A DNA stretch of 64,000 nt from a bacterium (GTDB taxonomy: Bacteria; Patescibacteriota; Dojkabacteria; JAKAPS01; JAJZLI01): positions 37,884-101,883 of the forward strand of contig DAIDGT010000001.1 of assembly GCA_027459825.1 (NCBI GenBank), in the 5' to 3' direction. Of the stretch, positions 11,152-31,894 are shown piece by piece (the stretch's first letter is position 1; each line of letters begins with the position of its first letter). The position numbers and the translations under genes were made by a program. The notes beneath the pieces were generated by a model. That model was given only the letters and a program-made list of their open reading frames with translations. It was not told where the DNA came from and did no database searches.

Positions 11152-11901
11152 ATGGCACGATACATGTATGTCAAAAAAGGTATCAGTATAAATAAAAAAA
11201 TACCTATTAAGTTAAAAGAAACTCAAAGGGTGAATTACAAAAAAATTAAATTCCATCCTAATTATGGATCAATATTTTTAGTAGTTGTAGGAATTATTAC
11301 CATAACAATAGCATTATCTCCAGAAATCAAATATGTTATAAATAATGTTGTTTTCCATAAATATAAAAATGTAATAGTCAAAGCAGATCCTTCTGCCTCA
11401 TATTTTGAAAAAATTATTAATGCACAACATTCTCAAAATGCAGCAGAGTATAATGGAACTTTTCAAATATCAATTCCTGCAATATCACTGTCCAATATTC
11501 CTGTTAAAGCAAATGTAGATGGGTTTAATACACAGGCTTACGAGACAGTGCTAACTAGTTCACTAGCCCAAATGAAAGGAACAGCACTACCTGGAGAAGT
11601 AGGTAATGTGTACATATATGGACATAGTGCCCCACAATGGTTTGCAGATTTGTACCCAAGTTCCTTCCTTGGAATATTTACAAATATATTAAAACTACAA
11701 AATGGACAATTAATATATATAAAATATAAAGGCATAGTATATAAATATTCAATAGTACAAGAAAGTGTTATTTCACCTACTGATATATCAGTACTTGAGT
11801 CTCCTCCAGGTAAAAAGTATTTGACACTTATGACATGCATACCTCCAGGAATAGGAACACAAAGGTATATAATAAAAGCTATACAAATTTCAGCATCTTA
11901 A
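11152..11901 (+). CDS. sortase-family transpeptidase
   Basis: N-terminal membrane anchor, catalytic His in IYGHSAP, the TLXTC motif (YLTLMTCIPPG) and a conserved Arg in RYIIKA. Confidence 0.75.
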   Translation: MARYMYVKKGISINKKIPIKLKETQRVNYKKIKFHPNYGSIFLVVVGIITITIALSPEIKYVINNVVFHKYKNVIVKADPSASYFEKIINAQHSQNAAEYNGTFQISIPAISLSNIPVKANVDGFNTQAYETVLTSSLAQMKGTALPGEVGNVYIYGHSAPQWFADLYPSSFLGIFTNILKLQNGQLIYIKYKGIVYKYSIVQESVISPTDISVLESPPGKKYLTLMTCIPPGIGTQRYIIKAIQISAS

Positions 11902-13520
11902 ATAAATAATTTTTTCTCAAATTCAAAGGCAAAATGCTTAATACGGGTATGTATGTCGTTATACAACATCAGTGATGAACCTATAGGCAAATTAGTTAAA
12001 ATTCTTAATTCTTCAGATGAAAGTGATAATGCATGAGATAGTTTTTCAAAATTTATCTTATCCTGTTTTAATAAAATTTTTAGAGAGGTATTAGCAATAA
12101 TAGATCTACCTTTATCAGTATCAATAACATCACCAATATCTTGAGTAATATAACAAAACCCCATACTGTACTTCCTTGCTCTTTTCGTTAGAGACTTCAA
12201 ATTGTTTAAAAGTTCAGAATTATCAAATAACCTATGAGCCTCATCTATAAAGACCTGTCTTTTCACAGAAAAGTCCTTTAACTTCCAAAGATAATTTAAA
12301 ATTACATACATCATTAATGGAATATTATCATCAGTTAAATCAGAAATATCAAAGACAATTAAATTATCTCTTTTATTTATATCAATATTAGTTTTCTTAG
12401 AATACAAATGTGACAGAGAACCCTTAGCAATTGGGAAAATTTCATCAGCCATAATGCTTTTAAAATCTTTTAAAATGTTGTATAAGTCAAAAAAAGTGGG
12501 AAAATTTACTTCTCTGAAAAGTTTCAATAAGGCTTTATCTAAGATATTTTTATCAAACCTAGTGCAATACTTTTTTAAAAAACCTTCTATAAAAGATATT
12601 TTATCTTCAATACTTTCATCTTGGGATAAGTCCAATGGATTAATGGTATAGTTATTATTACCTTTAAATTTGCTAGAAAACTTTACTAACTTTCCATCCA
12701 AAGACTTACAAAGCTTCACATATTCACCTTCAGGATCAATAACAATTACCTTGATACCTTTTGATATCATTCTCACAATAGTAGCTTTTGCAAGAAAACT
12801 CTTACCAGCCCCAGATTTTGCAAAAATTACACTATTATAATTTTCAAGCTTAAAAATATCTAAAATACATAAAGCCTTCGACAAAACATTTTCTCCATAT
12901 AATATTCCATCATAGTCACATCGATTACCTACAGACAAAAAATTTAAAGCCGACAGTGATTGAGATTCATATACCATACCAGGATATTTAGAATATGTAG
13001 CAAGGGGAAGAGAATAAAGAAAACCTTCTACATGGTTTAGATCCAATTGATGTACAGTAAATCCTTTTGACTCTGCAAGCATTTGAATATTATTAGATAG
13101 TACATTTAATTTACTTAAATTACGATTAAATAAGGTTATGTATGATGCCATTAAAAAACCTTTAGAATTTCCAGAAATCAATGAATATGAAAAATCTTCT
13201 AATTTTGCAATTTCCATATCCAAAGAGGAATCCCTCAATCTTCCCTTTGAAAAGTCAGAGTGACGCTTAGCACTCAACGCAGCAATTCTATTTTTAATAG
13301 CAATTAGAACAGAAGGCTTCTCCAAAGGCGTAATCATTTGAGAGCATAATACATTACCACCTGAAAATACAAAATCCAAAAGACAAAACGGAATTACTTC
13401 TGATGGAAAATCATAAAATATAAGAGTTATGTAATATACGTCATTTATTTTTACAAACTTATATTTTTCTATAATACTTAATGGGAATATTTTAGTAATA
13501 TTTTGTTTAATATTTATCAT
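11898..13520 (-). CDS. VirB4/TraC-like type IV secretion ATPase, ATPase half (copy A)
   Basis: Walker A FAKSGAGKSFLAK, VIVIDPEGEY, Walker B VFIDEAHRLF, ARKYSMGFCYITQD. It is a paralog of 17389..19401, and its start overlaps the upstream ORF by ATGA. Confidence 0.7.
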   Translation of the reverse strand: MINIKQNITKIFPLSIIEKYKFVKINDVYYITLIFYDFPSEVIPFCLLDFVFSGGNVLCSQMITPLEKPSVLIAIKNRIAALSAKRHSDFSKGRLRDSSLDMEIAKLEDFSYSLISGNSKGFLMASYITLFNRNLSKLNVLSNNIQMLAESKGFTVHQLDLNHVEGFLYSLPLATYSKYPGMVYESQSLSALNFLSVGNRCDYDGILYGENVLSKALCILDIFKLENYNSVIFAKSGAGKSFLAKATIVRMISKGIKVIVIDPEGEYVKLCKSLDGKLVKFSSKFKGNNNYTINPLDLSQDESIEDKISFIEGFLKKYCTRFDKNILDKALLKLFREVNFPTFFDLYNILKDFKSIMADEIFPIAKGSLSHLYSKKTNIDINKRDNLIVFDISDLTDDNIPLMMYVILNYLWKLKDFSVKRQVFIDEAHRLFDNSELLNNLKSLTKRARKYSMGFCYITQDIGDVIDTDKGRSIIANTSLKILLKQDKINFEKLSHALSLSSEELRILTNLPIGSSLMLYNDIHTRIKHFAFEFEKKLFI

Positions 13521-14092
13521 ATATTTAAATAAATGGATGAAAAAACCATTTCTATTTCATCATAGTTATTAATAAATTTATGATCAAATCCAAAGTGAAT
13601 AAAAAGATATTCCAACTGAGTGTCATAACTTGTAACTAATTTTTTAATACCTAAAAATTCATTAGAAAAAATTAAGGATTTTCTTTTACTCTCAAATATA
13701 TAACTTACAAAGTACCTTTGTTCATAAATTTCTGAAAATAATGAAGTTGCCTTTATTTCACTTTCATACAGTAATTTCAGTTTTTCATTTTCTATATTTC
13801 TAACATATTTAAGAACACTATCTTTAGAGGTTATTAAATTACAAACAGATAATTTTATTTGCAAATTAAGACCTAAAAGGAACTCTTCATACTTTTTTAT
13901 GAAATTTTCTTTCAGTGAATCTTCTAAAAACGATACATCTGTAGGAAATACTTCCACTAATCTTGCATAAAAAGAATTTTTTAAAATTACAATACCATCT
14001 TTAATTCCAATAATAGGAAGAAAGCTACTTGTACTCTTCATAAGGGATACTAATGTAATACAATATAAATGAAAATTTTCTTTCTCTAACAA
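13517..14092 (-). CDS. VirB4 N-terminal-domain-like protein (split from ATPase half, copy A)
   Basis: PIIGIKDGIVILKNSFYARLVEVFPTDVSFLEDSLKE matches the CagE/TrbE/VirB4 N-terminal pattern. It is a paralog of 19398..20084 and translationally coupled to the ATPase ORF. Confidence 0.5.
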   Translation of the reverse strand: MLEKENFHLYCITLVSLMKSTSSFLPIIGIKDGIVILKNSFYARLVEVFPTDVSFLEDSLKENFIKKYEEFLLGLNLQIKLSVCNLITSKDSVLKYVRNIENEKLKLLYESEIKATSLFSEIYEQRYFVSYIFESKRKSLIFSNEFLGIKKLVTSYDTQLEYLFIHFGFDHKFINNYDEIEMVFSSIYLNI

Positions 14093-14336
14093 AGAATTTC
14101 ACAAAATCAAAAAACCAAATAATAATAATTCTCCCCTTAACTTGTTGCTTAAATAAAAAATACAGGGAGACAAGAGTGAGTGAAAGTAAAAATACCTTGA
14201 CTTTTAGATTTATATGAATAAAGAGAATCAAAATGATATTAAACACGATAGATAAAACAATCCAGTAAAAATCATATGATAAGATAACATAATTATTCTT
14301 CAAACTCTTAAATTTTAATACTTTAACTTTTTTCAT
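14025..14336 (-). CDS. small two-helix membrane protein, VirB3/PrgI-like by position
   Basis: 103 aa with two hydrophobic segments, immediately upstream of the VirB4 module. Confidence 0.3.
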   Translation of the reverse strand: MKKVKVLKFKSLKNNYVILSYDFYWIVLSIVFNIILILFIHINLKVKVFLLSLTLVSLYFLFKQQVKGRIIIIWFFDFVKFFVRERKFSFILYYISIPYEEYK

Positions 14337-15336
14337 TATGCTCTAAAAATTTTTGTATTGTACTATATATGTTCCATCTTAAACGATCAGATAAATTTTG
14401 TACTGGAGTATGTAGACTTCCACTAAAAATAAAAGGTATCAAAGATAAGGCATATAAAGTTATGATACCTAATAGAAACTGGGGAATTCCTGTTATAGAG
14501 GTACTATTTACAATCAAAACAAATATGGAAATTCCTATAAGAAATGCAGGTTGGATAAATAAAAGTTCTATGATTTTTAATGTTATAGATCTAAACATTC
14601 CCTGAAAGATAGGAAATAAAGAAAAGATTATAAATATTGGAAATAATAATATTAAAATCCAAAGCAATATAAATCTCACAATAAATTCTAAGGAAAAAAT
14701 AAATAATGCCAAAATTAAGGCAATATATAAAATAACCTTTATAACATTTTCAAATAAACCAAATATAGAAAATTGGGTAAAGTGACCTAATATAAGAGTA
14801 AACAAATTTCCAGAAGATACACCTATTAAATTTGTGATGATAAATTTATCTAAAACATTAACAAAGGTTATTAGGTAAGATAGAATATATGGAGAAAGTA
14901 AAATTAAAAAAATAGCAAAAATAGTGTTAACTAATAAATCATGCATAGATACACCACTCCGACCAACAGATGCTTCACCAATGTACAGCATAATACATAT
15001 AAAAAGAAATACAGGTACTAATGAGATAGCAATATATTCTGTACCATCCTTATACTCCTTATATGCAATACCACCAAATTTTGTATTTGGATCTGACCTA
15101 CTATTCAAGATATTGGGAGTAAATTCTACAAACTGATTTATAGTAAATCCAAATGAACAGAGTATGTTTTGAATTGAATAAAGTATATTATTTTGATTGC
15201 AATTTGTACTAAAATTAGTACCATTGCTTTCCTTAGCATAAACAGGAGAAGATACAAAGTACAATATTGCAAAAATTGTAATAATACTAACTAGGAATAA
15301 GCGCATGCAAAAAATGACTAAAATTTTGAGCACCAA
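14323..15336 (-). CDS. polytopic membrane protein, VirB6/TrbL-like
   Basis: Signal peptide, an extracytoplasmic segment, then about 5-6 TM helices. Positioned between the VirB2-like and VirB4 genes. Confidence 0.4.
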   Translation of the reverse strand: MVLKILVIFCMRLFLVSIITIFAILYFVSSPVYAKESNGTNFSTNCNQNNILYSIQNILCSFGFTINQFVEFTPNILNSRSDPNTKFGGIAYKEYKDGTEYIAISLVPVFLFICIMLYIGEASVGRSGVSMHDLLVNTIFAIFLILLSPYILSYLITFVNVLDKFIITNLIGVSSGNLFTLILGHFTQFSIFGLFENVIKVILYIALILALFIFSLEFIVRFILLWILILLFPIFIIFSLFPIFQGMFRSITLKIIELLFIQPAFLIGISIFVLIVNSTSITGIPQFLLGIITLYALSLIPFIFSGSLHTPVQNLSDRLRWNIYSTIQKFLEHNEKS

Positions 15337-15550
15337 ATATTATAAAAAGTCCCACTAATACCCATATGATTTTAGTTCCAAGCCTAGATCTTTCCTGAGG
15401 GTTATTAGAATACATAATAAATTGTATCCCAAGAAATATAACAATAAGTACTAGGACTGATTGAACAATAGTTATAATTACAGAAGTAATATTACCAACA
15501 AATTGTGACAAATTTGGTACTTGCTCCATACTGGGTACAATATTAAACAA
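15287..15550 (-). CDS. VirB2/TrbC-like pilin (small protein with two hydrophobic helices)
   Basis: 87 aa. Hydrophobic helix 1 (VIITIVQSVLVLIVIFLGIQFIM), a short polar loop, then helix 2 (IIWVLVGLFIIFGAQNF). It is the first gene of the minus-strand operon. Confidence 0.4.
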   Translation of the reverse strand: MFNIVPSMEQVPNLSQFVGNITSVIITIVQSVLVLIVIFLGIQFIMYSNNPQERSRLGTKIIWVLVGLFIIFGAQNFSHFLHALIPS

Positions 15551-15567
15551 GTATCAAAAGTAATGCA

Positions 15568-15583
15568 TTGCCATGCATGGCAA
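15568..15583. promoter_or_regulatory. perfect 16-bp palindrome TTGCCATGCATGGCAA in the divergent promoter region
   Basis: Read directly from the sequence. It lies between the divergently transcribed VirB2-like gene (minus) and the AbiEi gene (plus). Confidence 0.4.
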
Positions 15584-15600
15584 ATTTATTTATAAAATAC

Positions 15601-15629
15601 TTGACAAAAACATAATTTTATTCTAGAAT
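15601..15629 (+). promoter_or_regulatory. sigma70-like promoter TTGACA-N17-TAGAAT upstream of the AbiEi gene
   Basis: Consensus -35 hexamer at 15601-15606 and -10 TAGAAT at 15624-15629 with a 17-nt spacer. The ATG is at 15639. Confidence 0.45.
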
Positions 15630-15648
15630 TACCAATATATGATTGGTA
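15630..15648 (+). promoter_or_regulatory. inverted repeat TACCAATATATGATTGGTA overlapping the AbiEi start codon (candidate autoregulatory operator)
   Basis: A 7-bp arm TACCAAT and its reverse complement ATTGGTA, separated by 5 nt, immediately after the -10 element. Confidence 0.4.
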
Positions 15649-16286
15649 TATGTGGAATAAAATCAATGGAAAAACTGGAGAATCTACCATATTTCAACAA
15701 GCATTCCTCTAAGGAGTTAATCGGGAAAACTGGCAGGAACCTTGATGCAAAGATACTTCAACTTACAAAAAAAGGATATTTCGTTCCACTAAAAAATGGG
15801 GTATATACATCTTCTGTATTTTATAATTTACAAGATAACAAGGGAGGGTATCTGGAATTCCTATCAAACGTATTAAGATACCCCTCATATATTTCATTGG
15901 AATACGTATTATATCTAAACGGAGCAATACCGGATGCAGTTCAGTCAATTACTGCAGTATCAATAAAAACTCCACGGGTATACAAGAATAAATTAGGGAT
16001 CTTTATATATAGAAATATAAAAGAAGACCTTTTTACAGGATTTACAATCAATAAAACAGGGACATTCAATATAAAGACAGCAACAAAAAGCAAAGCATTA
16101 TTTGATTATCTATACCTAAAAAGAGATATTTCACAAAATTTGAAATATGAAATAGAAGAAGGAATGCGAATAAATTGGGATATATTCTCAAAAAAGGACT
16201 TAATAGAATTTTATACTTATTGCAAAATTGCAAATTCAAACAAGATGAATAAAATTTATAAGATAATGCAAAGCATCATCATATGA
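15639..16286 (+). CDS. AbiEi-like antitoxin / transcriptional regulator (type IV TA)
   Basis: 215-aa ORF translationally coupled (ATGA overlap) to a clear AbiEii toxin gene. Size and position match AbiEi, but no direct motif was recognised. Confidence 0.5.
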   Translation: MIGICGIKSMEKLENLPYFNKHSSKELIGKTGRNLDAKILQLTKKGYFVPLKNGVYTSSVFYNLQDNKGGYLEFLSNVLRYPSYISLEYVLYLNGAIPDAVQSITAVSIKTPRVYKNKLGIFIYRNIKEDLFTGFTINKTGTFNIKTATKSKALFDYLYLKRDISQNLKYEIEEGMRINWDIFSKKDLIEFYTYCKIANSNKMNKIYKIMQSIII

Positions 16287-17329
16287 TATTGGAAAACTTG
16301 AAACAAATAGTAGACAAAAATAAAAATATAGAATCTCCCTTATATCTTAGAAATTTATTAAAAGAAAGTTTACAGTTGTATGTACTTAACTACATTTACA
16401 CTTCAAAATATGGAAGTAATTTTCTATTTACAGGAGGAACCTGCTTGAGAATATGCTTTGATCTTCCCAGATTATCAGAAGACTTAGACTTTGATTTAAT
16501 AGACATAACACAATTCAATGTGTATGAATTTGAAAAAGATATACAAGATTACTTTAGAAAGACTCTTCAATATAAAGATATTACAACCAAGATTTCTAAG
16601 GGGGAGAGAACAATGTTCCTAAAATTCCCTATATTAGAAAAATTAGGAGTAAACAATAATCCTGCAGAGACTAATATTTTATTCCTGAGAATAGATATTA
16701 CTCCTATGGCTTCAACGGTATACACAAAAGAATTGTCTATAAAGAGCACCCATGATTTTAGTTTTCTAATAAATAGATACTCTCTAAAAGATTTATTCGC
16801 TTCAAAAATTGCAGCAATTATAAGAAGAGTGTTTGTAAAAGGAAAAAGAGATACTCCTTTTAAGGCAAGAGATTACTTTGACCTCATATGGTTTATGGAA
16901 AAGAGGATATACCCAGACTACCAAAGAATAGGGGATCTTCTTAAAATATATTCAAAAGATGAAATTCTACAATTATTAAATAATAAAGTTGAAAATATAA
17001 ATATATCCCACTTAAAGGAGGATTTATCTCCATTTATAAAAGACCAGGAATTTGCATCAAATTTTGCAGAAAAATATAAAGCGCTTTACTCAACCCTAAC
17101 CACTACAAGGATAGATTATTCCAAAGTGGATGCACTTAGCCACACCCCTGTATACCTAGAACTTGAGGATTTAAGTAGAAAATATCCGCAATATGAAAAA
17201 ATATTTTCCAAAGCTTTGCATGAAGAAGCTGTCCCTAATATAAAAGTAATGATGCAGATATTATTAAAAAATGCTAAGGGGCTTGGAGATAAAGAATTAT
17301 TAAATGACCTCCAGGAAATTAGAATGTAG
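16283..17329 (+). CDS. AbiEii/AbiGii-family nucleotidyltransferase toxin (DUF1814)
   Basis: FLFTGGTCLRICFDLPRLSEDLDFDL matches the hallmark GGTAL...RxSEDxDF motif of AbiEii nucleotidyltransferases. Confidence 0.8.
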   Translation: MILENLKQIVDKNKNIESPLYLRNLLKESLQLYVLNYIYTSKYGSNFLFTGGTCLRICFDLPRLSEDLDFDLIDITQFNVYEFEKDIQDYFRKTLQYKDITTKISKGERTMFLKFPILEKLGVNNNPAETNILFLRIDITPMASTVYTKELSIKSTHDFSFLINRYSLKDLFASKIAAIIRRVFVKGKRDTPFKARDYFDLIWFMEKRIYPDYQRIGDLLKIYSKDEILQLLNNKVENINISHLKEDLSPFIKDQEFASNFAEKYKALYSTLTTTRIDYSKVDALSHTPVYLELEDLSRKYPQYEKIFSKALHEEAVPNIKVMMQILLKNAKGLGDKELLNDLQEIRM

Positions 17330-17388
17330 ATAAATCCATTTCACAATATACCCATTACATGGGGTGTTTAGGAAATAGACTCAATAAT

Positions 17389-19401
17389 TCAAGAAACTAT
17401 GTCTTGAGAATTAGATTGTACATTATTATTATCTTCTGGATTAGTCTGAGTATCATTATTACCAATTACTCCCTCAGTAGAATTGCCATTTGTAACAGTA
17501 TTAGGAACAATACGATCTAAAGATGATGCTTCAGGATTTTCTCTCATTTTTAAAATTTCTTCAGGATTTGTTGTTATTAGTTTATGTTCATATTCACTAG
17601 ATAAGACCTGTATAGCGACATGATTTGCTCCAACAAAGAATATTCCTTCTCCAATCTCAGCAGAGAGTAGTAAACTCTTTTCTCCTTCTGATAAGAAAAA
17701 GACTTCAGATAGACGATCTATTGCAGAAGGAGATTGCCTTAACAGAATTTGTATAGAAGAGTTTGTTACTACAGCTTTTCCATAATCATTTGAAAGAAAG
17801 TCATCTACATCTTGAGACACAGTAGTAAGACCTAAGTAATATTTTCTTGCTCTTTTTGCAACGGCATACACAAACTGAGCACTATCAGGATATTGCATCA
17901 GAATCCATGCTTCATCAATGATAAAAATTCTCTTTCTAAGATCTTTTTTTACTCTAGTCCAGATAAAATCGAGCATTAAAAACATAGCAATTGGCCTTAG
18001 TTCATCTGAAAGATCCCTTATACTAAAAACAGTAAAATCATTATCAAGATTTACTGTTGTATGGGTATCAAATATACCAGAAGCAGAACCTTTAATATAT
18101 TTTTCAAGCCTTGTAGCCAATTCATGAGCTTCGGGCTCCTCCATGGATTGTAAAACTTTGTACAAATCCTCCATTAGAGGAGGATCCTTTACCTGGGTAT
18201 CAGGATCAAAAGTAATCCCTTTATCTCTATAAGTTAATATCAAAGCTTTATCTAGAATAGCATCCTCTATACTAGAAAGCCCACCTTCATTTCCAAGCAT
18301 TACCTTAAAGAGACCATGTAAGGAAAGTATCTTAAACCTAAGTTCATCTTCTCCTTCCTCATAAACTCCAGATAAGTCAAAAGGATTTATTTTATCCCTA
18401 CCATCCTGTGTAAATGAAATATATAGTCCATTTAAAGCCTTACATAAAGTTTCATATTCATTTTCAGGATCAATAATTATAATCTGAGTACCAAGCATCA
18501 AAGATCTCAAAGCTTCTAGCTTTACAAGATAACTTTTACCTGAACCAGATTTAGCGAAAACAACCGAGTTTGCATTCTCTAGATCAAATCTGTCAAACAC
18601 TACTAAACTCTTATTAGCTTTATTAATACCATAAAGCACGCCTCTATCAGAAGTAAGCTCAGAGGAAACAAAAGGGAATGTAGTTGCTATGGAAGTAGTA
18701 TCCATGTTATGGGTATAGTAAAGTTTATCATACCCTTCGGGGAGAGTTGATTGAAAACCACCTTCCATCTGTAAAGTTGTTGGCTTAATTATAAGGGACA
18801 TTGCACCTAAAGTTGATTCTAGATTTTTTGATATGTCATCCAACTCTTCTAATGTATCTGCCCTAACAGTTACATATAATGCAAAATGGAAGTATCGCTC
18901 AGCTCCTTTAGCTAGATTATCCTGTAAATTTTTAGCATCTTCTAAAGTAACTTTAATTGTAGGATCCAATACCCTGCCAGACTCAATCATAGTATTAGTT
19001 GTAGCTTCAAGCTCTGCAATCTTTTTTCTAAGTTGTCCTAATACCTCTTTAGCATCAATAGGATAATAAAACATACTAATATCGATAGAATGCTCAAACG
19101 TAATTAATGGAGATAACCAATTTGGAGTTACATACCGAGGATATGCGAGAGCAAAATATGTTCTAAAAAATTTATCTCCAATTTTAATGTTAGAAAAATC
19201 GACTTCGATAGAAGGAGGAGCAATAATATCCTTTATTGAATTTATTCCCATTCCAAACACTTCAAAAGCAGAATTAGTATTAGAAGTTGTTCCCTGTTCT
19301 GATCCCGTAGACTTAGAAGGTACTGAATTAGAATTTTCAACACCACTATCACTTGAGCTAACATTTTTATTAGATTGTCTAGAAAAAAACGGGATCTTCA
19401 T
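17389..19401 (-). CDS. VirB4/TraC-like type IV secretion ATPase, ATPase half (copy B)
   Basis: Walker A FAKSGSGKSYLVK, IIIIDPENEY, Walker B IFIIDEAWILM, ARKYYLGLTTVSQD. It has an S/N/T-rich low-complexity N-terminal insertion and overlaps the upstream ORF by ATGA. Confidence 0.75.
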   Translation of the reverse strand: MKIPFFSRQSNKNVSSSDSGVENSNSVPSKSTGSEQGTTSNTNSAFEVFGMGINSIKDIIAPPSIEVDFSNIKIGDKFFRTYFALAYPRYVTPNWLSPLITFEHSIDISMFYYPIDAKEVLGQLRKKIAELEATTNTMIESGRVLDPTIKVTLEDAKNLQDNLAKGAERYFHFALYVTVRADTLEELDDISKNLESTLGAMSLIIKPTTLQMEGGFQSTLPEGYDKLYYTHNMDTTSIATTFPFVSSELTSDRGVLYGINKANKSLVVFDRFDLENANSVVFAKSGSGKSYLVKLEALRSLMLGTQIIIIDPENEYETLCKALNGLYISFTQDGRDKINPFDLSGVYEEGEDELRFKILSLHGLFKVMLGNEGGLSSIEDAILDKALILTYRDKGITFDPDTQVKDPPLMEDLYKVLQSMEEPEAHELATRLEKYIKGSASGIFDTHTTVNLDNDFTVFSIRDLSDELRPIAMFLMLDFIWTRVKKDLRKRIFIIDEAWILMQYPDSAQFVYAVAKRARKYYLGLTTVSQDVDDFLSNDYGKAVVTNSSIQILLRQSPSAIDRLSEVFFLSEGEKSLLLSAEIGEGIFFVGANHVAIQVLSSEYEHKLITTNPEEILKMRENPEASSLDRIVPNTVTNGNSTEGVIGNNDTQTNPEDNNNVQSNSQDIVS

Positions 19402-20084
19402 ATAGGTTTCATCTGCATAGTAGAAGATACTAAAGGAGCAGTATACTGATTAAAATCTCCCCTTAGTTTATCATTCATAGGATTATATATATTATAAAAC
19501 AATTTAATTAAATCTGCAGTAGTAAGTTGTTTTGACTTTAACCCCATCCTTGATAGCTGCCTTATAATGTGATCTCTACGGGGAAAGAGTTTTGACTTAG
19601 ACTGCTCAATAATTTTGTCAATGTTAGTTAACTTTACTTCTTTTCCAAACATTTGTTTTGTAAAAGAAGGTTTTTGGGTAGACCATGAAAAAGAGGGGAC
19701 AACTATATAAAAATGTTTATCAAGAACATTGTTCTTCACAATTAAATCTTTAACAAACTTTCTGTATATGTCTATTTGATACTTCACCTTTGGATCTTTT
19801 TGTTTTTCCCTAAAGTCATCCAAATACTTAAGATATTTAGAAATATCAATGTTCTCAGTATGAACTAAAACTTGTATATAAAAACCCAAAGAATTCAAAA
19901 GTCCCGCAAATGCATAAATTTTAGATTCTTGCTCAATCTCAGATAAAAGATAGAAGTTAACTGCAGACGTCTCAACCACAAGACAAACATTTCCATTTTT
20001 TAAAACAAGTAAATCATCTTTTATTTCCTCTATATCTAAATGAGCCTGAGTTGTTGCAATAATTGGTGTTTTTTTACTATCCAT
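19398..20084 (-). CDS. VirB4 N-terminal-domain-like protein (copy B)
   Basis: LDIEEIKDDLLVLKNGNVCLVVETSAVNFYLLSEIEQE matches the VirB4/TraC N-terminal pattern. Paralog of 13517..14092. Confidence 0.5.
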   Translation of the reverse strand: MDSKKTPIIATTQAHLDIEEIKDDLLVLKNGNVCLVVETSAVNFYLLSEIEQESKIYAFAGLLNSLGFYIQVLVHTENIDISKYLKYLDDFREKQKDPKVKYQIDIYRKFVKDLIVKNNVLDKHFYIVVPSFSWSTQKPSFTKQMFGKEVKLTNIDKIIEQSKSKLFPRRDHIIRQLSRMGLKSKQLTTADLIKLFYNIYNPMNDKLRGDFNQYTAPLVSSTMQMKPI

Positions 20085-20095
20085 AAAATATTATA

Positions 20096-21601
20096 TTACA
20101 AATTATTATTCTCCTGCATAACAGGGATAAATATAAAAGGTATAACAAGAGACCCTGTCAACTCTATACCCACAGAGTTAAACTTATATCCCTGAGCATT
20201 AATTTCTATATTATACCTACCATTCAAAAGTGCTGTTCTCGTATAAAACTGCCCCAATTGATTAGATTTTACAGCTCTTATAGGTTTTTGATTTGAATCT
20301 TTTATTATCACAACGGCATCAGAAATCAAAGTACCATCAGAATTTACAATAACTCCCGAAATAACATTAGGGGTCTTTACAAAATCTGGAAGTTTAGAAA
20401 TTAATGCTTGCTGATCAAATGTACCCTGCTGAGAAGAAACTCGTGTCTTAACTTTTTCAATATTACTCTGCAAAGTATCTTCAGGTATTTTTTTTGCACT
20501 TATCTCATTTTTTAATTCAGAATTTTCCATCTCAAGCTGTTTAATTCTTTCCATTATTTTAGAAAGTTCACTATCTCTCGAGGACGGAGTATTCCCTAAG
20601 GAAGATTGATTAGAATTACTATCTTGCTCATTAATAGTATTATTAGAGGAATTAACCACAGAATCATTACTAACACTATTATTATTTTCAATAATATCAC
20701 TATCAACTTTAATATCAGAAATATTACTTTGTGGAATAGTAGATTGAGAAGACACATTAGAACTATCAGTATGATTAACATTTTCTTCAGCAGGATAAGT
20801 AGAAATATTACCTACATCATCAGATTTACTCGCATCATATACAACATTACTATCACTATTTACGTTATTGTAAGGTATAGATTCCTGCAGATTAGCATCA
20901 GGATTCTTATCATTAGTATGATTTTCTCCAATTTCTCTTTTTTCATCAACAGAACCATCATCACTATTATTACTACCAACTAAATTTTGGGGAGTACTCG
21001 GTCTCGGGACAGAAGAAATATAAGGTGAAGAGTTATTGTTTGATACTGGGGAGGAAGGAGAAGTTGACAATATTGAATTAGTATCAATTTTTTCATTTGT
21101 AAGCAATTTATTAATTTTATCTATATTTGCATTGAGCATATTTTCTTTTAATTCTAATGCGCTATCAACGTTAGATGCATTATTTTTTATAGTAGTATCA
21201 AAAGGATTTTGGTAAAAAAATGTTGCAATTTCCTTATTAGAAGGAGAAACTGTAGGGGACTTAGGAATATCAAGTACAGAAGGAATGGTTGATGATTCCC
21301 TCATCCATATCCTTTGAGTGGGTTTCTTAATAGTAATTAAAAAATTGGTAATCCATTCATCAAGAGGCCTATCATCAATTGGGATAAAAGCAATCAGTAC
21401 ACCCAAAAGTAAAAAAATACCTGTAAGGGGAATTGTAATATAATTACTAACATGGGCAATAAACATTATAAATCCTATACAAGCAGGAATAGCAATAAAG
21501 GCAAATTGCTTCATAGACATATCCCCAATTATCTTGAATTCAACACTCATTATATTTTGAGGAACTGAATGCTGCTTTTCTTTCATAATCAATATAAACA
21601 T
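20096..21601 (-). CDS. PrgI/VirB3-like membrane protein with Ser/Asn-rich low-complexity linker, coiled coil and C-terminal beta-sandwich-like domain
   Basis: Two N-terminal TM helices, then about 200 aa of S/N/D-rich low complexity, a coiled coil (LEMENSELKNE) and a C-terminal region resembling a carboxypeptidase-regulatory-like fold (SGVIVNSDGTLISDAVVIIKD...GRYNIEINAQGY). Confidence 0.35.
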   Translation of the reverse strand: MFILIMKEKQHSVPQNIMSVEFKIIGDMSMKQFAFIAIPACIGFIMFIAHVSNYITIPLTGIFLLLGVLIAFIPIDDRPLDEWITNFLITIKKPTQRIWMRESSTIPSVLDIPKSPTVSPSNKEIATFFYQNPFDTTIKNNASNVDSALELKENMLNANIDKINKLLTNEKIDTNSILSTSPSSPVSNNNSSPYISSVPRPSTPQNLVGSNNSDDGSVDEKREIGENHTNDKNPDANLQESIPYNNVNSDSNVVYDASKSDDVGNISTYPAEENVNHTDSSNVSSQSTIPQSNISDIKVDSDIIENNNSVSNDSVVNSSNNTINEQDSNSNQSSLGNTPSSRDSELSKIMERIKQLEMENSELKNEISAKKIPEDTLQSNIEKVKTRVSSQQGTFDQQALISKLPDFVKTPNVISGVIVNSDGTLISDAVVIIKDSNQKPIRAVKSNQLGQFYTRTALLNGRYNIEINAQGYKFNSVGIELTGSLVIPFIFIPVMQENNNL

Positions 21602-21669
21602 AACATAAAAAATAGATTTTTAAAAGGTGAAATAGGCTATATTTAGAAATAAAAAAAACACAAATAATA

Positions 21670-21696
21670 TTGCATTTCTAATAAAATTAGTATAAT
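21670..21696 (+). promoter_or_regulatory. possible promoter TTGCAT-N15-TATAAT upstream of galU
   Basis: Hexamers read from the sequence. The spacer is short, so this is weak. Confidence 0.2.
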
Positions 21697-21719
21697 ATCC
21701 TCCCCAATAGGCTAAAATT

Positions 21720-22604
21720 ATGGAAGATAATAAAAGAATCACAAAAGCAGTTATAGCCCTTGCAGGATACGGAACAAGATTTTTACCAGCAACAAAAGAA
21801 CAACCAAAAGAGATGCTCCCTATAATTGATAAACCTATTGTTCAGTATTTGGTTGAAGAGTTAGTAGAGTCAGGAATACAAGATATTATAATGGTAACAA
21901 GACTTGGGCAAAGAGCATTAGAAGACCATTTTGATAACAACATTGCACTTGAATATCACTTAGAAAAAAACGGAAAAGATAAAATATTAAAGGAAGTTCA
22001 AGAACTCCCTAAGAAAGCCAACTACATATATGTAAGACAGAAGCGTTTCCTTCCATATGGAAATGGAACCCCACTTCTTGTAGTAAAAAATTTAATAAAG
22101 AAAAATGAAAATTTCGTATACATGTTTGGCGATGATCTTGTAAAAGCAGACATTCCCGCAACAAAACAGTTAATAGAAGAAGCAAATAAAAACCCAGGAA
22201 AGATTGTAATCGCAGCACAAGATGTTAAACCAGATGAAGTAGAAAAGTATGGAGTTATTAAATTCGGGCCAGATAATAAAACGGTAGAAACAATTGTAGA
22301 AAAACCAAAAAAAGAAGAAGCACCATCAAATACAATAACATTTGGAAGGTTTATACTAAATAACGAGGTATTAGAAGAGATTGCAAAAAGGCAACTAGGA
22401 AAAGATAACGAGTTATGGTTATCTGACGCAATAGCAAACCTGGCAAAACAAGGCAAAGTTGTTGCTGTTAAGATACAAGGGAGATGGATGACAACAGGAG
22501 ATCCATTAAATTTCCTAAAAACTACTATAGAATATGCCAAGGACAGAGAAGATCTCTGGAGAGAACTTAAAATATATATAGAAAATAGCATCAAAGAAAG
22601 TTAA
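21720..22604 (+). CDS. galU: UTP--glucose-1-phosphate uridylyltransferase
   Basis: AVIALAGYGTRFLPATKEQPKEMLPIIDKP is the canonical GalU N-terminal nucleotide-binding motif. Confidence 0.85.
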   Translation: MEDNKRITKAVIALAGYGTRFLPATKEQPKEMLPIIDKPIVQYLVEELVESGIQDIIMVTRLGQRALEDHFDNNIALEYHLEKNGKDKILKEVQELPKKANYIYVRQKRFLPYGNGTPLLVVKNLIKKNENFVYMFGDDLVKADIPATKQLIEEANKNPGKIVIAAQDVKPDEVEKYGVIKFGPDNKTVETIVEKPKKEEAPSNTITFGRFILNNEVLEEIAKRQLGKDNELWLSDAIANLAKQGKVVAVKIQGRWMTTGDPLNFLKTTIEYAKDREDLWRELKIYIENSIKES

Positions 22605-24033: not shown

Positions 24034-25698
24034 ATGGATTTAAAAGAATTATTAATAAAAAATAGCGTACTTACCGAAAGTGAGTATGAAGAACTACAAG
24101 AAAAGGCAAGACAACTAAACAGCTCTATTGAAGAAATGATTATTGCAAGGAATGTGATTAGTGAGGATGATCTTGGGAAACTTATAGAGAAACAATACGG
24201 AATACCTCATATTTCCCTAATACATAAAACAATAGATCCAGACATTGTCAAAGTAATACCTGAAAAAACAGCAATAGAAAGAAAGGTTATTGCATTTGAT
24301 AAAACAGCGTCAAACCTAAAGATTGGAATGACCAACCCTAGAGATATAAATACTATAGAGTTTATAAAAAAAGGAACAGGATTTAATGTCGATGCTTATT
24401 ACATCACTGAAAATTCCTTTTATGAAGGATTAAAACTATATAAGACATCCATAAAAGAAGAATTGAAAGACATTATAGATAAAAATGCAAAAGACGCAAA
24501 GGTAAAAGGAGAAGAATCAAATGCGCTTCCTATAATCAATATAGTAGATAAAATACTTGAGTATGCAAATTCTATGGGAGCGTCAGATATACATATTGAG
24601 CCTATGGAGAAAGAAGCGCTAGTAAGATATAGGGTAGATGGAATACTTCATGATCAAGCAACATACCCAATAAAAATACACTTAGCAATATCATCAAGAA
24701 TAAAAATTCTTTCAAATTTAAAAATAGATGAACACAGACTTCCACAAGATGGAAGATTTAAAACAACGATTAATGATCAAGAAGTGTCATTTAGAGTATC
24801 TACAATGCCCGCATATTTCGGAGAAACTGTAGTACTAAGGTTATTAAAAGAAAATGCAAAAGAATATAATTTAGAAACTCTTGGAGTACAAGGAAGAGAT
24901 TATGAAATATTAAAAAGTAGTATTAAAAAGACAGTAGGAATGATATTAGTAACGGGACCAACGGGATCAGGAAAAAGTACTACTTTATATACGATTCTAT
25001 CACTACTAAATACACCAGAGGTAAATATAAGTACAGCAGAAGATCCAATTGAATACAGTATGCCAAGAGTAAATCAAACTCAAGTTAACCCTAAAATAGG
25101 ACTGACATTTGCAGAAGCGCTCAGGTCATTTCTAAGACAAGACCCTGATATCATGATGATAGGAGAAATAAGAGACAATGAGACCGCAGATATTGCAATA
25201 AATGCAGCTATTACAGGACATTTAGTATTATCTACACTACATACAAATGACGCAGCAAGCGCAATACCAAGACTTATAGATATGCACATAGAATCATTTC
25301 TTGTATCATCAACACTCAATACAATAATAGCGCAAAGATTAGTAAGAAAGTTATGCAATAACTGTAAAACAGAACAAAAACTTGACCAGAAGATGATATC
25401 TATACTACAAGAACAATATGATAAGAAAGGTATAGATAAGAAAATAAATGGAAATGCATTTTATAAACCAGTAGGTTGTGAATACTGTAGCAACGGATAT
25501 AATGGAAGAGTTGGAATATATGAGATACTAGAAGTTACAGATACAATAAAAGAATTAATAATTAAAAAAGATAATGCTAGTAATATACAAAAAAAGGCAC
25601 AAGAAGAAGGAATGACCTTGATGGTAGAAGATGGAATTCAAAAAGCTCAACAAGGAATAACATCAATAGAAGAAGTTCTTAGAGTAATTAAAGAATAA
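24034..25698 (+). CDS. pilB: type IV pilus assembly ATPase PilB (GspE family)
   Basis: T2SSE N-terminal domain, Walker A GPTGSGKSTTLY, Asp/His boxes and a tetracysteine motif (CNNC...CEYC). Confidence 0.9.
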   Translation: MDLKELLIKNSVLTESEYEELQEKARQLNSSIEEMIIARNVISEDDLGKLIEKQYGIPHISLIHKTIDPDIVKVIPEKTAIERKVIAFDKTASNLKIGMTNPRDINTIEFIKKGTGFNVDAYYITENSFYEGLKLYKTSIKEELKDIIDKNAKDAKVKGEESNALPIINIVDKILEYANSMGASDIHIEPMEKEALVRYRVDGILHDQATYPIKIHLAISSRIKILSNLKIDEHRLPQDGRFKTTINDQEVSFRVSTMPAYFGETVVLRLLKENAKEYNLETLGVQGRDYEILKSSIKKTVGMILVTGPTGSGKSTTLYTILSLLNTPEVNISTAEDPIEYSMPRVNQTQVNPKIGLTFAEALRSFLRQDPDIMMIGEIRDNETADIAINAAITGHLVLSTLHTNDAASAIPRLIDMHIESFLVSSTLNTIIAQRLVRKLCNNCKTEQKLDQKMISILQEQYDKKGIDKKINGNAFYKPVGCEYCSNGYNGRVGIYEILEVTDTIKELIIKKDNASNIQKKAQEEGMTLMVEDGIQKAQQGITSIEEVLRVIKE

Positions 25699-26247: not shown

Positions 26248-27078
26248 ATGAACATAATAAATGATATCATACTCAGTTTAACTCAAGGAATATCTGAGCT
26301 TTTCCCAATTAGTAGCTTGGGGCACAGTATCATTATTCAATCATTCCTAAATATACATGTTACAAAAAACTCAGCATTTTTCCTTCCATTTATAGTTTCA
26401 CTACACGTAGGTACAGCATTGGCATTAATAATCTATTTTTTTAAAGAATGGAAAAATATAGTTATATCACTAGTAAAAACTGCGATATCAGGAAAATTAT
26501 CTAATGATAAAACAGAAAATTTTGCATGGAAACTAGTAATAGCAACAGTTCCTGTTGGTGTAGTTGGTTTACTATTTAAAAATTTTGTTGCACAAATTTT
26601 TAAATCACCACAAATTGCGGCAATATTTATAATAATCAATGGATTCATACTATATATTGGTGAAATTCTAATAAGGAGAAAAAATATCACGAAAAGAAAA
26701 TTAGAAGATATATCATTTTTTGACGCCATCATCATAGGGGCATCGCAAATACTAGCATTAATACCAGGAATATCTAGATCAGGAGCAAGTATGGTAGCAG
26801 GGCTTTTATATAAATTAGACCATGAAGATGCGGCATATTTTTCATTCATGCTAGCAACCCCAGTAATTCTTGCGGCAGGAGTACTCGAGATACCTACCCT
26901 TTTTACAATACATTATGCGCAAGCATTCATGTATGCAACAATCGGAGCAGTTATATCTGGTATTGCTGCATATTTTGCAGTAAAGTTTTTAATGAAATAC
27001 TTCAAAACAGGAACACTAAAACCATATGCTTACTACTGCATTGCCGCAGGAGTACTAGCACTTATAATATTAAGATAA
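26248..27078 (+). CDS. uppP: undecaprenyl-diphosphatase
   Basis: GISELFPISSLGH and ISRSGASM motifs of the BacA/UppP family. Confidence 0.9.
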   Translation: MNIINDIILSLTQGISELFPISSLGHSIIIQSFLNIHVTKNSAFFLPFIVSLHVGTALALIIYFFKEWKNIVISLVKTAISGKLSNDKTENFAWKLVIATVPVGVVGLLFKNFVAQIFKSPQIAAIFIIINGFILYIGEILIRRKNITKRKLEDISFFDAIIIGASQILALIPGISRSGASMVAGLLYKLDHEDAAYFSFMLATPVILAAGVLEIPTLFTIHYAQAFMYATIGAVISGIAAYFAVKFLMKYFKTGTLKPYAYYCIAAGVLALIILR

Positions 27079-28503
27079 AAGAAATATTATATATGGGACC
27101 TTTAATAAACCATTATCATAACTTATATTAAAATCTTTAGTAATTAATATTTTATTTTCAATTTTTAATTTACCTGACAAACCTTGAAAAAATTTTCTTC
27201 CTTTTATGTCAATACAGACACTGATACCACTAGTAGACTTAAAAATAAAATCAATGTCTTTATCTCTATTTCTATAATACTTACAATCTACAATATTATC
27301 TTTCTGTTTCAAAAAAACATAGAAAAGATTCATTATATATTTATTAAAAAGTTCAGGAGAAGAAAGTATATCTTCTTCCCTAATTTTTAGTATACTATTC
27401 CTCACACCATGATCAATTAAAAAAATTTTAATATTGGAAGCCTTATTTATATTTGAATGATATTTTTCTAACCTTAAAATTAAATTGGAATCTTCTAAAA
27501 CCTTTAGATATTTTTCAATAGTTTCTCTATGTACTTTTAATTTCTCTGCTAAAGAAAGAATACTAAACTCATCAGTAAAGTTAATAGCAAGATAAAAGAA
27601 AAGACTAGAAAGAGCATCTGTGTTTTTTATATCTTCAATAAGGTAAATGTCTTCCAACAAAATTTTTTCTATTTGAGTTTGATACAAATATTCATACTGT
27701 AATTTTTCATTTGGCATCATCCATCCTTCAATAAATCCTCCATACAGTAAATATTTATTAAAATACTTAAAAAGCTCATCTTCAAACATTGAAAGTTTTT
27801 TTAAAGTGGACAGAATTGCAGGAATAGAGGTTTCAAATTTAAAATCTCCAAAGATAGATGGTGTTACCATGTGCAAATCAGAAATAGATTTAAGAATACT
27901 CTCCTTCATTCGGATATCAGCACGATCATCAGAAAGCAAGGTAAACGTTAAATATTCTTCGAAACTAAAGGGAAATAATTTAAAATTTTTTATTCTTCCT
28001 GCCAAAGATTCTTTACTTTTTATATTAATAAAAGAAGAATATGATCCAGAAATAATAAATTTGAAATTCATTTTGGAATCATAATATTTTTTGAGAAAAA
28101 GCTCCCAACCATCAAACCTCTGTATTTCGTCAATGAAAATATATTTTTTACCATCACTACCAAAATCTTTTGTGTAATCTATAAAGTTGGAAATTATATC
28201 GTCAAATATAGCAGGTGAGTGTCGTATAGAATATATAAAAGGATCATCCATTGAAATATACATAATATCAAATGGATTAATACCTTCCAGATTTATAAGG
28301 TCTGATACTACCTGCTTAAGTATAGTAGTCTTTCCTACTCTTCTTGGACCAGTTACAGAAATTATCTGATCAATGCTTAGTACAGAGTTAAAAATATCAT
28401 CATAAGAAGATCTCCTGTACACAGGAATTCCTAGAAGAGAATTATTTTTTTTCCACCATGGATTATAAAATTCAATACACTTTCTAAATAAATTGATATC
28501 CAT
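27070..28503 (-). CDS. AAA+ ATPase with DUF4143 domain
   Basis: The N-terminal FYNPWW motif and P-loop GPRRVGKTT are typical of the PF13173/PF13635 family. Confidence 0.7.
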   Translation of the reverse strand: MDINLFRKCIEFYNPWWKKNNSLLGIPVYRRSSYDDIFNSVLSIDQIISVTGPRRVGKTTILKQVVSDLINLEGINPFDIMYISMDDPFIYSIRHSPAIFDDIISNFIDYTKDFGSDGKKYIFIDEIQRFDGWELFLKKYYDSKMNFKFIISGSYSSFINIKSKESLAGRIKNFKLFPFSFEEYLTFTLLSDDRADIRMKESILKSISDLHMVTPSIFGDFKFETSIPAILSTLKKLSMFEDELFKYFNKYLLYGGFIEGWMMPNEKLQYEYLYQTQIEKILLEDIYLIEDIKNTDALSSLFFYLAINFTDEFSILSLAEKLKVHRETIEKYLKVLEDSNLILRLEKYHSNINKASNIKIFLIDHGVRNSILKIREEDILSSPELFNKYIMNLFYVFLKQKDNIVDCKYYRNRDKDIDFIFKSTSGISVCIDIKGRKFFQGLSGKLKIENKILITKDFNISYDNGLLKVPYIIFLLS

Positions 28504-29826: not shown

Positions 29827-30568
29827 ATGCTTTAATATCTGCAGCCTTTAAAGTTTCATCTAAACTATGATTATGAACAGATGAGAGGGCATACCCCCTT
29901 GAAAAACTAACAGGAGTATTCATGTGTACTAAATTTTTATTAATTGCTTCATTGATTCTTTCTGCTATACCTGCAAGTCCATGTTCTCCATCCTCAGTAA
30001 AATCTCCTCCATCATCTCTAACCAAATCCCTTACAATTACACAAAATTCATCTCCACCCATTCTAACACAATAGTCATATGGACGAGTTTGCTCTTTGAT
30101 AACTTTAATAGCATCAGAAAACGCTTTTATATATGCATCACCCTCTGCATGTCCTAAAGTATCATTAACCTTTTTGAGTCCATCTAAATCAAAGAACATA
30201 ACACCAAAAGGAAACCCCACACGAGAAAGATTCTCCAGTAAACCTTTTTGAGCTTTAAGATATCCCCTATTATATGCTCCTGTCAGTTCATCAAGTCTAG
30301 ATTTTTCAATTTCTTCACTCTGCTTCGCAATCTCATCCTCCTGCATTGCAATTCTATGGTCTTTAGAAGCCAACTCTTCCTCCTGAAGAGCAATAATTGC
30401 ATCTTTTTTTGCAATTAGTGAAGTTAACTCATCAAGTCTTGCCTGCATAGACTCAACTAAACCAATTTCACCCCCAGACTGAGTTAGCCTCCTCAAATCA
30501 CTTCTAGTAACATTTAACTCTTGAAAAATATTTGCCTCACCCTTGGTATCCTCTGTTTCAGAAAACAT
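29789..30568 (-). CDS. GGDEF-domain diguanylate cyclase with N-terminal coiled coil
   Basis: The RMGGDEFCV active-site motif is present. Confidence 0.85.
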   Translation of the reverse strand: MFSETEDTKGEANIFQELNVTRSDLRRLTQSGGEIGLVESMQARLDELTSLIAKKDAIIALQEEELASKDHRIAMQEDEIAKQSEEIEKSRLDELTGAYNRGYLKAQKGLLENLSRVGFPFGVMFFDLDGLKKVNDTLGHAEGDAYIKAFSDAIKVIKEQTRPYDYCVRMGGDEFCVIVRDLVRDDGGDFTEDGEHGLAGIAERINEAINKNLVHMNTPVSFSRGYALSSVHNHSLDETLKAADIKAYEEKKSKGAQRF

Positions 30569-31890: not shown

Positions 31891-31894
31891 AAAT

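Follow-up and report, generated by a model that had tools for sequence, protein, structure and literature searches.

Why a bacterium should carry two VirB4-type ATPase genes close together, each preceded by a small separate gene for the N-terminal part of the same protein, and what kind of machine such genes could build, are the questions raised by a stretch of 64,000 nt of contig DAIDGT010000001.1 (assembly GCA_027459825.1, positions 37,884 to 101,883) from a member of the Dojkabacteria. The whole 64-kb stretch is called the window in the following, all coordinates are positions in it, and open reading frames (ORFs) were called with translation table 11. An earlier description made from the letters without database searches, here termed the sequence-only reading, had proposed two paralogous modules resembling a type IV secretion system (T4SS), and all ORFs named in it were found at their coordinates on the minus strand. 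Module A comprises genes for a pilin-like protein of 87 aa, proteins of 337 and 103 aa, a small ORF (N-ORF A) and an ATPase ORF (ATPase A); module B comprises genes for a 501-aa PrgI-like protein, a small ORF (N-ORF B) and an ATPase ORF (ATPase B).

With a probability of roughly 0.8, the region is read here as a chromosomal, non-conjugative T4SS of the Patescibacteria (Dojkabacteria/WS6) made up of two paralogous modules, in which the split of VirB4 predates the duplication, module A is a divergent cassette of a subclade and module B is the core. The host, suspected from the letters to be of the episymbiont type, is a bacterium of the Patescibacteria. The homologues whose source names point to the Dojkabacteria are 46-51% identical.

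Two paralogous VirB4-type ATPases

The two ATPases share 29% identity over ~550 residues (E value 3e-71). Residue 11 of ATPase A aligns with residue 60 of ATPase B, and the peptides VKINDVYYITLIF and IKIGDKFFRTYFA therefore occupy homologous positions. Ahead of this homologous start ATPase B has ~55 additional low-complexity residues, and low-complexity tails were found at both its N- and its C-terminus. P-loop_TraG and AAA_10 Pfam matches were obtained for both proteins. ATPase B scored 388.3 bits against NF045971 (conju_CD1110; curated cutoff 325) and matched PDB entry 4AG5, the C-terminal domain of VirB4, with an E value of 3.9e-54. On the conju_CD1110 profile of 752 positions ATPase B spans positions 186-733 and ATPase A positions 196-730; neither polypeptide covers the full profile including its N-terminal ~185 positions, and the N-terminal part is encoded by the gene upstream. 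As had been read from the letters, the motif columns of both ATPases show Walker A, Walker B and another three VirB4 motifs in intact form, and the same holds for all orthologues.

The pattern of CagE_TrbE_VirB (PF03135) had been assigned to the small ORFs. This assignment was not upheld, as the match lies in residues 76-223 of ATPase B; the small ORFs represent a stretch of VirB4 that precedes it.

As a side observation, the C-terminal 135 positions of the profile of the actinobacterial SCO6880 family (477 positions) aligned to residues 90-223 of ATPase B (E value 1.1e-6), and its N-terminus aligned weakly to the PrgI-like hairpin formed by residues 23-87 of the 501-aa ORF (E value 0.1). This hints at a different cut of the VirB3/VirB4 N-terminal region in other lineages, with VirB3 fused to the N-terminal domain and the ATPase encoded separately.

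Identity of the small ORFs and position of the break

Evidence that a small ORF and an ATPase ORF together represent one VirB4 came from VirB4_plasma (NF045975), a profile of 894 positions for full-length VirB4 of the Mbov_0397 type. N-ORF B covers its positions 103-282 (E value 1.4e-10), followed by ATPase B at 292-893; ATPase A occupies 294-893. Small ORF and ATPase ORF thus tile one VirB4, which agrees with the earlier view that the N-terminal piece is a separate gene at the same position in both modules.

A hidden Markov model (HMM) of 70 homologues of N-ORF B matched TrsD of plasmid pSK41 with 36 bits, and N-ORF B itself scored 21.6 bits (E value 1.6e-4) against the TrsD/TraD model NF041427, whose curated cutoff is 200 bits. 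The pairwise similarity of N-ORF A and N-ORF B is weak (E value 0.001). On the family level, the N-ORF A family (6 members) aligned with the N-ORF B family along its entire length (166 columns) with an hhalign probability of 96.7% and an E value of 3.7e-10, and the members of the N-ORF A family reached 11-26 bits with the HMM of the module B TrsD-like proteins. The earlier view that the two modules are paralogous was supported. One N-ORF A orthologue carries a match to the TraC-like family PF26593, matches to which were available precomputed for orthologues only. When an AlphaFold model of N-ORF B with a predicted local distance difference test score (pLDDT) of 78 was compared using Foldseek, the top 14 matches were R388 TrwK/VirB4.

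In the broad sense of homology combined with a position directly upstream of a truncated virB4 gene, the small ORFs are TrsD-like in all loci. N-ORF A and N-ORF B are remote homologues of TrsD that fall outside the staphylococcal TrsD equivalog, and judged from profiles and the predicted fold of N-ORF B they correspond to the first subdomain within the N-terminal domain of VirB4.

PrgJ of plasmid pCF10 (796 aa) was used as the unsplit VirB4 reference for locating the break. Residue 57 of ATPase B aligns with PrgJ residue 225, residue 47 of TrsE aligns with PrgJ residue 239, and ATPase B and TrsE align with each other from their N-termini onward, residue 30 of the former with residue 7 of the latter. 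Alignment thus locates the break inside the VirB4 N-terminal domain, near residue 220 of PrgJ, and not at the linker to the ATPase domain, where it had been expected. The comparison of the N-ORF B family with the PrgJ N-terminus was not significant, though collinear (HMM E value 0.03; hhalign E value 0.022, residues 40-147 versus 65-165).

The length of N-ORF A had to be revised. A start at TTG 14092 would give the 191 aa originally assigned, which is too long in comparison with the orthologues, all of which have 172-175 aa and start at the Met of ATG 14041 with the exception of one of 200 aa with an internal insertion. Since the orthologues begin there, ATG 14041 is probably the start codon, which gives a protein of 174 aa.

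Origin of the split

Both junctions read ATATGA, so that the TGA stop of each small ORF shares bases with the start ATG of the following ATPase ORF, and the ATGA overlap reported for both copies is indeed present. A 4-nt overlap at both junctions in an AT-rich context is also the geometry that a 1-nt indel could give, and it was considered whether an error of one base, in sequencing or assembly, had broken one full-length virB4 at each junction. The relatives speak against such an artefact. The small gene was separate in every independent assembly examined (NCBI, ENA, JGI, Logan), and small gene and ATPase gene are separate in the loci L001, L005-L009 and L011-L021 of the comparison set. None of the 159 homologues of N-ORF B (E value ≤ 1e-3) is fused to an ATPase; all are stand-alone proteins, nearly all of 205-245 aa, and many are named Candidatus Dojkabacteria. 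Longer homologues of 286-372 aa were considered as fusions and rejected, as their extra length is a P/T/S-rich tail with no ATPase sequence. Moreover, the junctions differ: 4-nt overlaps were found in the window, L011 and L013, an 8-nt overlap in L008, gaps of 2-7 nt in both modules of L005 and in module A of L001, L006 and L007, and gaps of 28-40 nt in module B of L001, L006 and L009. The same split is found in the finished plasmid pSK41 and was reported in >2,000 Patescibacteria genomes (Quinonero-Coronel et al. 2025, PMC12102498). On these comparative grounds a frameshift error is excluded, the chance of an artefact being next to nil, and the split is genuine, as the sequence-only reading had held.

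Because the junctions vary among relatives, the ATGA overlap is a local and not a conserved trait. Translational coupling, which had been offered as the means by which the split is maintained, is plausible in the window; with junctions that range from overlaps of up to 8 nt to gaps of 2-40 nt, it is no defining property of the gene pair.

An alternative genetic code in which UGA is a sense codon, as in Gracilibacteria/SR1, was suggested by the TGA ends of both small ORFs. It was rejected because ORFs called with table 11 match the lengths of their orthologues throughout the window (IF-2, DnaJ, DnaK) and because the gene calls of the relatives agree.

A single database protein (P0254), encoded on an ENA contig of 1,209 bp that corresponds approximately to positions 13050-14041 (minus strand), joins residues 1-142 of N-ORF A to ATPase A from about residue 158. 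The joint is a shared 'QL', and ~190 residues are removed. P0254 probably stems from chimeric assembly, or from a deletion, on a contig that is very short, and does not represent a natural full-length fusion.

Probable duplication, distribution and selection of the two modules

The common break in both modules had been taken as evidence of two maintained splits. It is better explained by the duplication of a pair that was already split, i.e. an ancestral TrsD plus TrsE/VirB4 design that was copied after the split. The simplest reading of the sequences is that the split TrsD+VirB4 pair was duplicated and that the copy linked to the pilin and the channel protein then evolved faster.

The distribution of the modules differs. 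PrgI-like, TrsD-like and VirB4 genes occur alone in other Dojkabacteria and in other chromosomal contexts (L008, L009), and module B is the conserved core across Dojkabacteria. The 337-aa gene of module A was detected in 8 of 185,579 GTDB species genomes, always within the module A cassette, and in five of these eight module B lies immediately upstream of module A. ATPase A has ~10 orthologue clusters at 47-51% identity, after which identity falls to 31-36% in comparison with other Patescibacteria VirB4, and N-ORF A is represented by only 6 representative clusters among 1.84 billion proteins, all of 123-217 aa.

In comparison with the close relative L011, the ratio of nonsynonymous to synonymous substitution rates (dN/dS) was 0.01-0.26 for every gene of both modules, indicating purifying selection. 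The values for module A were near 0.1 (0.01-0.12; ATPase A, 0.10) and similar to those of the flanking housekeeping genes. Over larger distances module A changes at a much higher rate: its identity to L001 is 48% for the ATPase and 32% for the TrsD-like protein, compared with 82% and 73% in module B. The low dN/dS values, together with the intact catalytic motifs, argue that both modules are functional. Module A is a rare, divergent, paralogous five-gene cassette of a small subclade that is kept by purifying selection.

ATPase phylogeny was reconstructed from 48 sequences by neighbor-joining (NJ), a simple distance method, with 100 replicates and two outgroups (TrsE and PrgJ). The sequences of module A formed a monophyletic clade (clade A) in 100 of 100 replicates, and all Patescibacteria ATPases including clade A were separated from TrsE and PrgJ in 98 of 100.

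These data also bear on whether module A is a decaying remnant of an integrative and conjugative element (ICE) or plasmid of the pGO1-like type within the mating pair formation class FATA (MPF-FATA), which has lost its relaxase and coupling protein. Its gene order (pilin-like protein, small transmembrane protein, TrsD, VirB4) resembles TrsB-TrsC-TrsD-TrsE of pSK41, its GC content is slightly lower (26.5-27% versus ~31%), it diverges faster from L001 as described above, and it adjoins a variable toxin-antitoxin spacer. Against this stand the intact state of all five genes under purifying selection (dN/dS 0.01-0.12) and the synteny of the cassette, which in several species lies between housekeeping genes (sortase and DnaJ on one of the sides); no integrase, relaxase or coupling protein is present, and ATPase A groups with Patescibacteria VirB4 and not with TrsE/PrgJ in the 98 of 100 replicates mentioned. 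A remnant of this kind is very improbable.

Pilin, membrane proteins and the PrgI-like protein

The VirB2-like call for the 87-aa ORF was confirmed by scores of 30.2 bits against T4SS_pilin (PF18895; cutoff 26.6) and 29.4 bits against TrbC (PF04956; cutoff 27.9), and a match to the Mbov_0395 pilin-like family was obtained with an E value of 2.9e-8. The length of 87 aa is counted from a TTG start, and the pilin is possibly shorter if it begins at an internal ATG. It is present at the same position in every module A locus, and its dN/dS was 0.013.

Assignment of the two following proteins was less direct. The 337-aa ORF, described earlier as VirB6-like, gave no family match itself, VirB6/TrbL (PF04610) included. 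Two of five orthologues match TrbL/VirB6 weakly (best E value 9.1e-4), and the orthologues are strongly conserved, with a mean column identity of 66%; position and topology, together with this weak similarity, tentatively suggest a VirB6-like role. For the 103-aa ORF, which had been called VirB3-like, no Pfam or NCBIfam match was obtained, and the alignment of its family with the PrgI domain had an hhalign probability of 0.1%, i.e. no similarity. The protein is conserved in 5 loci, and a VirB3-like role may be deduced from gene order (as in pSK41) and topology, not from sequence.

For the 501-aa ORF of module B the earlier PrgI call was borderline, with 26.8 bits against PrgI (PF12666) in residues 13-89 at a threshold of 27; the call is helped by orthologues of 321-645 aa at the same position, which carry PrgI matches. 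A beta-sandwich at the C-terminus (residues 414-480) matched CarboxypepD_reg with 32.4 bits. The dN/dS of this gene, 0.26, is the highest in the locus. These features of the 501-aa protein hint at an extension that is surface-exposed and changes fast, attached to an inner-membrane subunit which is normally tiny.

Predicted function

Neither a relaxase family nor a type IV coupling protein (T4CP) family was matched by any ORF of at least 300 aa in the window, among which five ORFs gave no family match at all; the earlier statement that the window holds no relaxase or VirD4 was thereby supported. The association with relaxase and VirD4/TcpA-type proteins that belongs to conjugative MPF-FATA systems was accordingly not found within the 64 kb. 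The modules are flanked by housekeeping genes (PNPase, IF-2, DnaJ, DnaK, HrcA, KsgA, YidC), and type IV pilus genes (PilB, PilC, pseudopilins, PilM-N) are located in the window.

In the proposed mechanism, each TrsD-like protein would dock on its cognate ATPase and rebuild a VirB4-like N-terminal domain, which would be anchored to the membrane via the VirB3-like protein. The ATPase oligomer would then power the assembly of a VirB2-like pilus or of a channel through the VirB6-like protein. By analogy, such a machine would most likely serve host interaction, i.e. transfer of protein or other material, or attachment, rather than conjugation. This role is proposed because no relaxase or coupling protein is encoded nearby, and it matches Southlakia epibionticum, in which the T4SS is essential for epibiotic growth and has pilins and no recognisable relaxase or coupling protein (Wang et al. 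2023, PMC10633639); the TrsD homologue of S. epibionticum is listed as essential as well (PMC12102498).

How the two modules share this work can be conceived in a different way, namely as halves of one apparatus, in which the PrgI/TrsD/VirB4 core would come from module B, while pilin, channel and a further VirB4-type ATPase with a specialised role would come from module A. ATPase A could then stand in for the coupling or VirB11-type ATPase that is missing, or fill the second, non-equivalent VirB4 position of the R388 inner-membrane complex. In favour of such an arrangement are a module B without its own pilin or VirB6-like gene next to a module A that has both, the adjacency of the modules in the window and in five of the eight species genomes with module A, the lack of a T4CP in the window, and the catalytic motifs and purifying selection observed in both ATPases. 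Against it, module A lies apart from module B in L007, L016, L019 and L021, and other Dojkabacteria as a rule have module B without module A, so that the latter is dispensable to the core. Furthermore, an own TrsD-like partner in each module suggests self-contained ATPase units, and what separates the modules is unrelated cargo that varies (AbiE and others). A single apparatus of two halves is thus judged improbable. A further reading, likewise improbable, is that a small subclade of Dojkabacteria has a two-ATPase T4SS with non-redundant TrsD+VirB4 pairs, in which the fast-diverging pair of module A, encoded along with the pilin and the channel protein, either forms a second, host-specific secretion or attachment machine or substitutes for the coupling or VirB11-type ATPase within the same machine.

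The interpretation preferred here, a non-conjugative T4SS with a conserved core and a divergent copy, has several points against it. ATPase A scored 209 bits against conju_CD1110, under the cutoff of 325, yet this was its best-scoring family, and N-ORF A gave no direct family match, NF041427 included. When N-ORF B and ATPase B were concatenated and modelled with AlphaFold2 as a single sequence without alignment, the result was unusable (pLDDT 32.8; predicted template modelling score, 0.22). In the NJ tree clade A is placed on a long basal branch of the Patescibacteria VirB4 and not beside the Dojkabacteria module B clade, a placement that could be due to long-branch attraction or could mean that the paralog is older and was possibly acquired horizontally. 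According to the literature, VirD4-like genes are often encoded far from virB4, and the search covered the 64-kb window only. Finally, the suggested function was transferred by analogy from a different class, the Saccharimonadia.

Locus layout and neighbouring genes

The features of the locus and of its surroundings are listed in Table 1.

Table 1. Features of the two modules and of neighbouring regions (positions in the 64-kb window).
Feature	Position	Strand	Remark
Module B gene 1, PrgI/VirB3-like, 501 aa	20096-21601	-	PrgI hairpin (borderline match), S/N-rich low-complexity region, CarboxypepD_reg
Module B gene 2 (N-ORF B), TrsD-like, 228 aa	19398-20084	-	equivalent of the first part of the VirB4 N-terminal domain
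Module B gene 3 (ATPase B), VirB4/TrsE-type, 670 aa	17389-19401	-	first ~200 residues of full-length VirB4 missing
Inter-module spacer	15551-17388		variable-cargo site across relatives
AbiEii toxin ORF, spacer	16283-17329	+	AbiEii Pfam, E value 3.5e-20
AbiEi antitoxin-like ORF, spacer	15639-16286	+	AbiEi NCBIfam, E value 1.3e-5
Module A gene 1, VirB2/TrbC-like T4SS pilin, 87 aa	15287-15550	-	Pfam T4SS_pilin and TrbC
Module A gene 2, polytopic membrane protein in VirB6 position, 337 aa	14323-15336	-	weak homology support
Module A gene 3, small protein with two hydrophobic segments, 103 aa	14025-14336	-	VirB3/TrsC position of pSK41
Module A gene 4 (N-ORF A), divergent TrsD-like, 174 aa	13517-14041	-	family-versus-family alignment
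Module A gene 5 (ATPase A), divergent VirB4-like, 540 aa	11898-13520	-	conju_CD1110 best family
Sortase gene, convergent with ATPase A	11152-11901	+	Sortase Pfam, E value 1.9e-20
Polytopic membrane protein, 516 aa	9553-11103	-	adjoins sortase; no family match
Type IV pilus cluster	24034-47544		
PilB	24034-25698		pilus cluster
AAA_14/DUF4143 ATPase	27070-28503	-	syntenic in L001
GGDEF diguanylate cyclase	29789-30568	-	
PilC	30622-31890		pilus cluster
N-methyl pseudopilins	31856-33313		pilus cluster
ORF, 472 aa	33285-34703	+	inside pilus cluster; no meaningful family match
ORF, 1,396 aa	34735-38925	+	inside pilus cluster; no meaningful family match
ORF, 1,423 aa	38935-43206	+	inside pilus cluster; no meaningful family match
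MacB-like ABC/FtsX	43216-45780		pilus cluster
PilM-PilN fusion	45925-47544		pilus cluster

The AbiEi/AbiEii pair is cargo of the spacer and no part of the secretion system, and in the window it is encoded on the strand opposite to both modules. The content of the spacer varies: in the close relative L011 it holds a co-directional and longer AbiEii (435 aa), in L001 and L006 another AbiE pair together with a 382-aa protein, in L005 DUF5663 and a 996-aa ORF, and in L020 almost nothing. The sortase gene is kept at the same position in L001, L005, L006, L011 and L013; it is convergent with ATPase A in every syntenic relative and is regarded as a conserved neighbour of the secretion system. A scan of positions 11500-22000 for promoters and terminators gave counts not above those of shuffled controls.

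The 516-aa membrane protein beside the sortase is fast-evolving, with 65% identity to L011 and a dN/dS of 0.21. The AAA_14/DUF4143 and GGDEF genes are located between the T4SS and type IV pilus genes. GC content is 0.375-0.396 in the region of the three large ORFs inside the pilus cluster, compared with ~0.30 elsewhere, and these ORFs may encode pilus-associated surface or adhesin proteins. The two largest were considered as RpoB/RpoC and rejected, as no RNA polymerase family was matched; the first had no NCBIfam match and the second a weak unrelated one.

Comparison with known systems

In a survey of 3,035 Patescibacteria genomes, most VirB4 proteins belonged to a Patescibacteria clade nested in MPF-FATA (PMC12102498). 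TrsD was described there as remotely homologous to the N-terminus of VirB4 and as the most abundant T4SS component in Patescibacteria, with 2,272 homologues of which 1,664 adjoin virB4; PrgI/VirB3, VirB6 and VirB2-like pilins were common and relaxases rare. The same survey counted 2,425 VirB4 proteins of the clade in 2,407 assemblies (PMC12102498), which means that second copies are rare.

A split VirB4 and a compact gene set have therefore already been described, both as TrsD/TrsE of pGO1-type plasmids and as the standard in Patescibacteria (PMC12102498), and the 'unusual, compact apparatus' of the sequence-only reading is the published Patescibacteria set of PrgI, TrsD, VirB4, VirB6 and VirB2-like pilin. 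What is added here is the tiling and fold evidence that places the TrsD-like protein as the first VirB4 N-terminal subdomain with a breakpoint near PrgJ residue 220, the explanation of the common breakpoint of two paralogs by duplication after the split, and, as the one real variation, a rare second and divergent T4SS cassette under purifying selection in ~8 species-level genomes. In the one tractable Patescibacterium, epibiotic growth requires the T4SS. Two copies that evolve differently within a lineage could therefore help to separate conserved core from host-specific functions, which is a modest lead.

With the T4SS of the Patescibacteria clade the window shares the chromosomal location, a VirB4 of probable MPF-FATA ancestry, a TrsD homologue directly upstream of virB4, VirB2-like, (borderline) PrgI/VirB3-like and (weakly) VirB6-like proteins, and the presence of type IV pilus genes; in both, neither a relaxase nor a coupling protein was found close by. 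It differs in that two TrsD+VirB4 pairs stand side by side, that the pilin and VirB6-like genes travel with the divergent copy and not with the conserved core, that a single pilin gene takes the place of a pilin array, and that the PrgI-like protein has a long low-complexity region and a C-terminal beta-sandwich.

The staphylococcal conjugative plasmids pSK41/pGO1 (MPF-FATA, pGO1 subclass) have the same breakpoint, with TrsD (227 aa) encoded directly upstream of a 672-aa TrsE that lacks the first ~200 residues of VirB4, in the order pilin-like TrsB, VirB3-like TrsC, TrsD and TrsE. Identity to pSK41 is ~19% for TrsD and 24-27% for the ATPases. In contrast to the window modules, pSK41 has a relaxase, the VirD4-like TrsK, the CHAP hydrolase TrsG and a topoisomerase, none of which was found near them.

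With full-length VirB4 proteins (PrgJ of pCF10, CD1110 family; TrwK of R388; and 4AG5 of Thermoanaerobacter) the ATPases share the Walker and signature motifs, and their alignment with PrgJ runs from about its residue 225 up to the end; the N-terminal ~220 residues, which in these proteins are part of the same polypeptide, are in the window the product of a separate gene.

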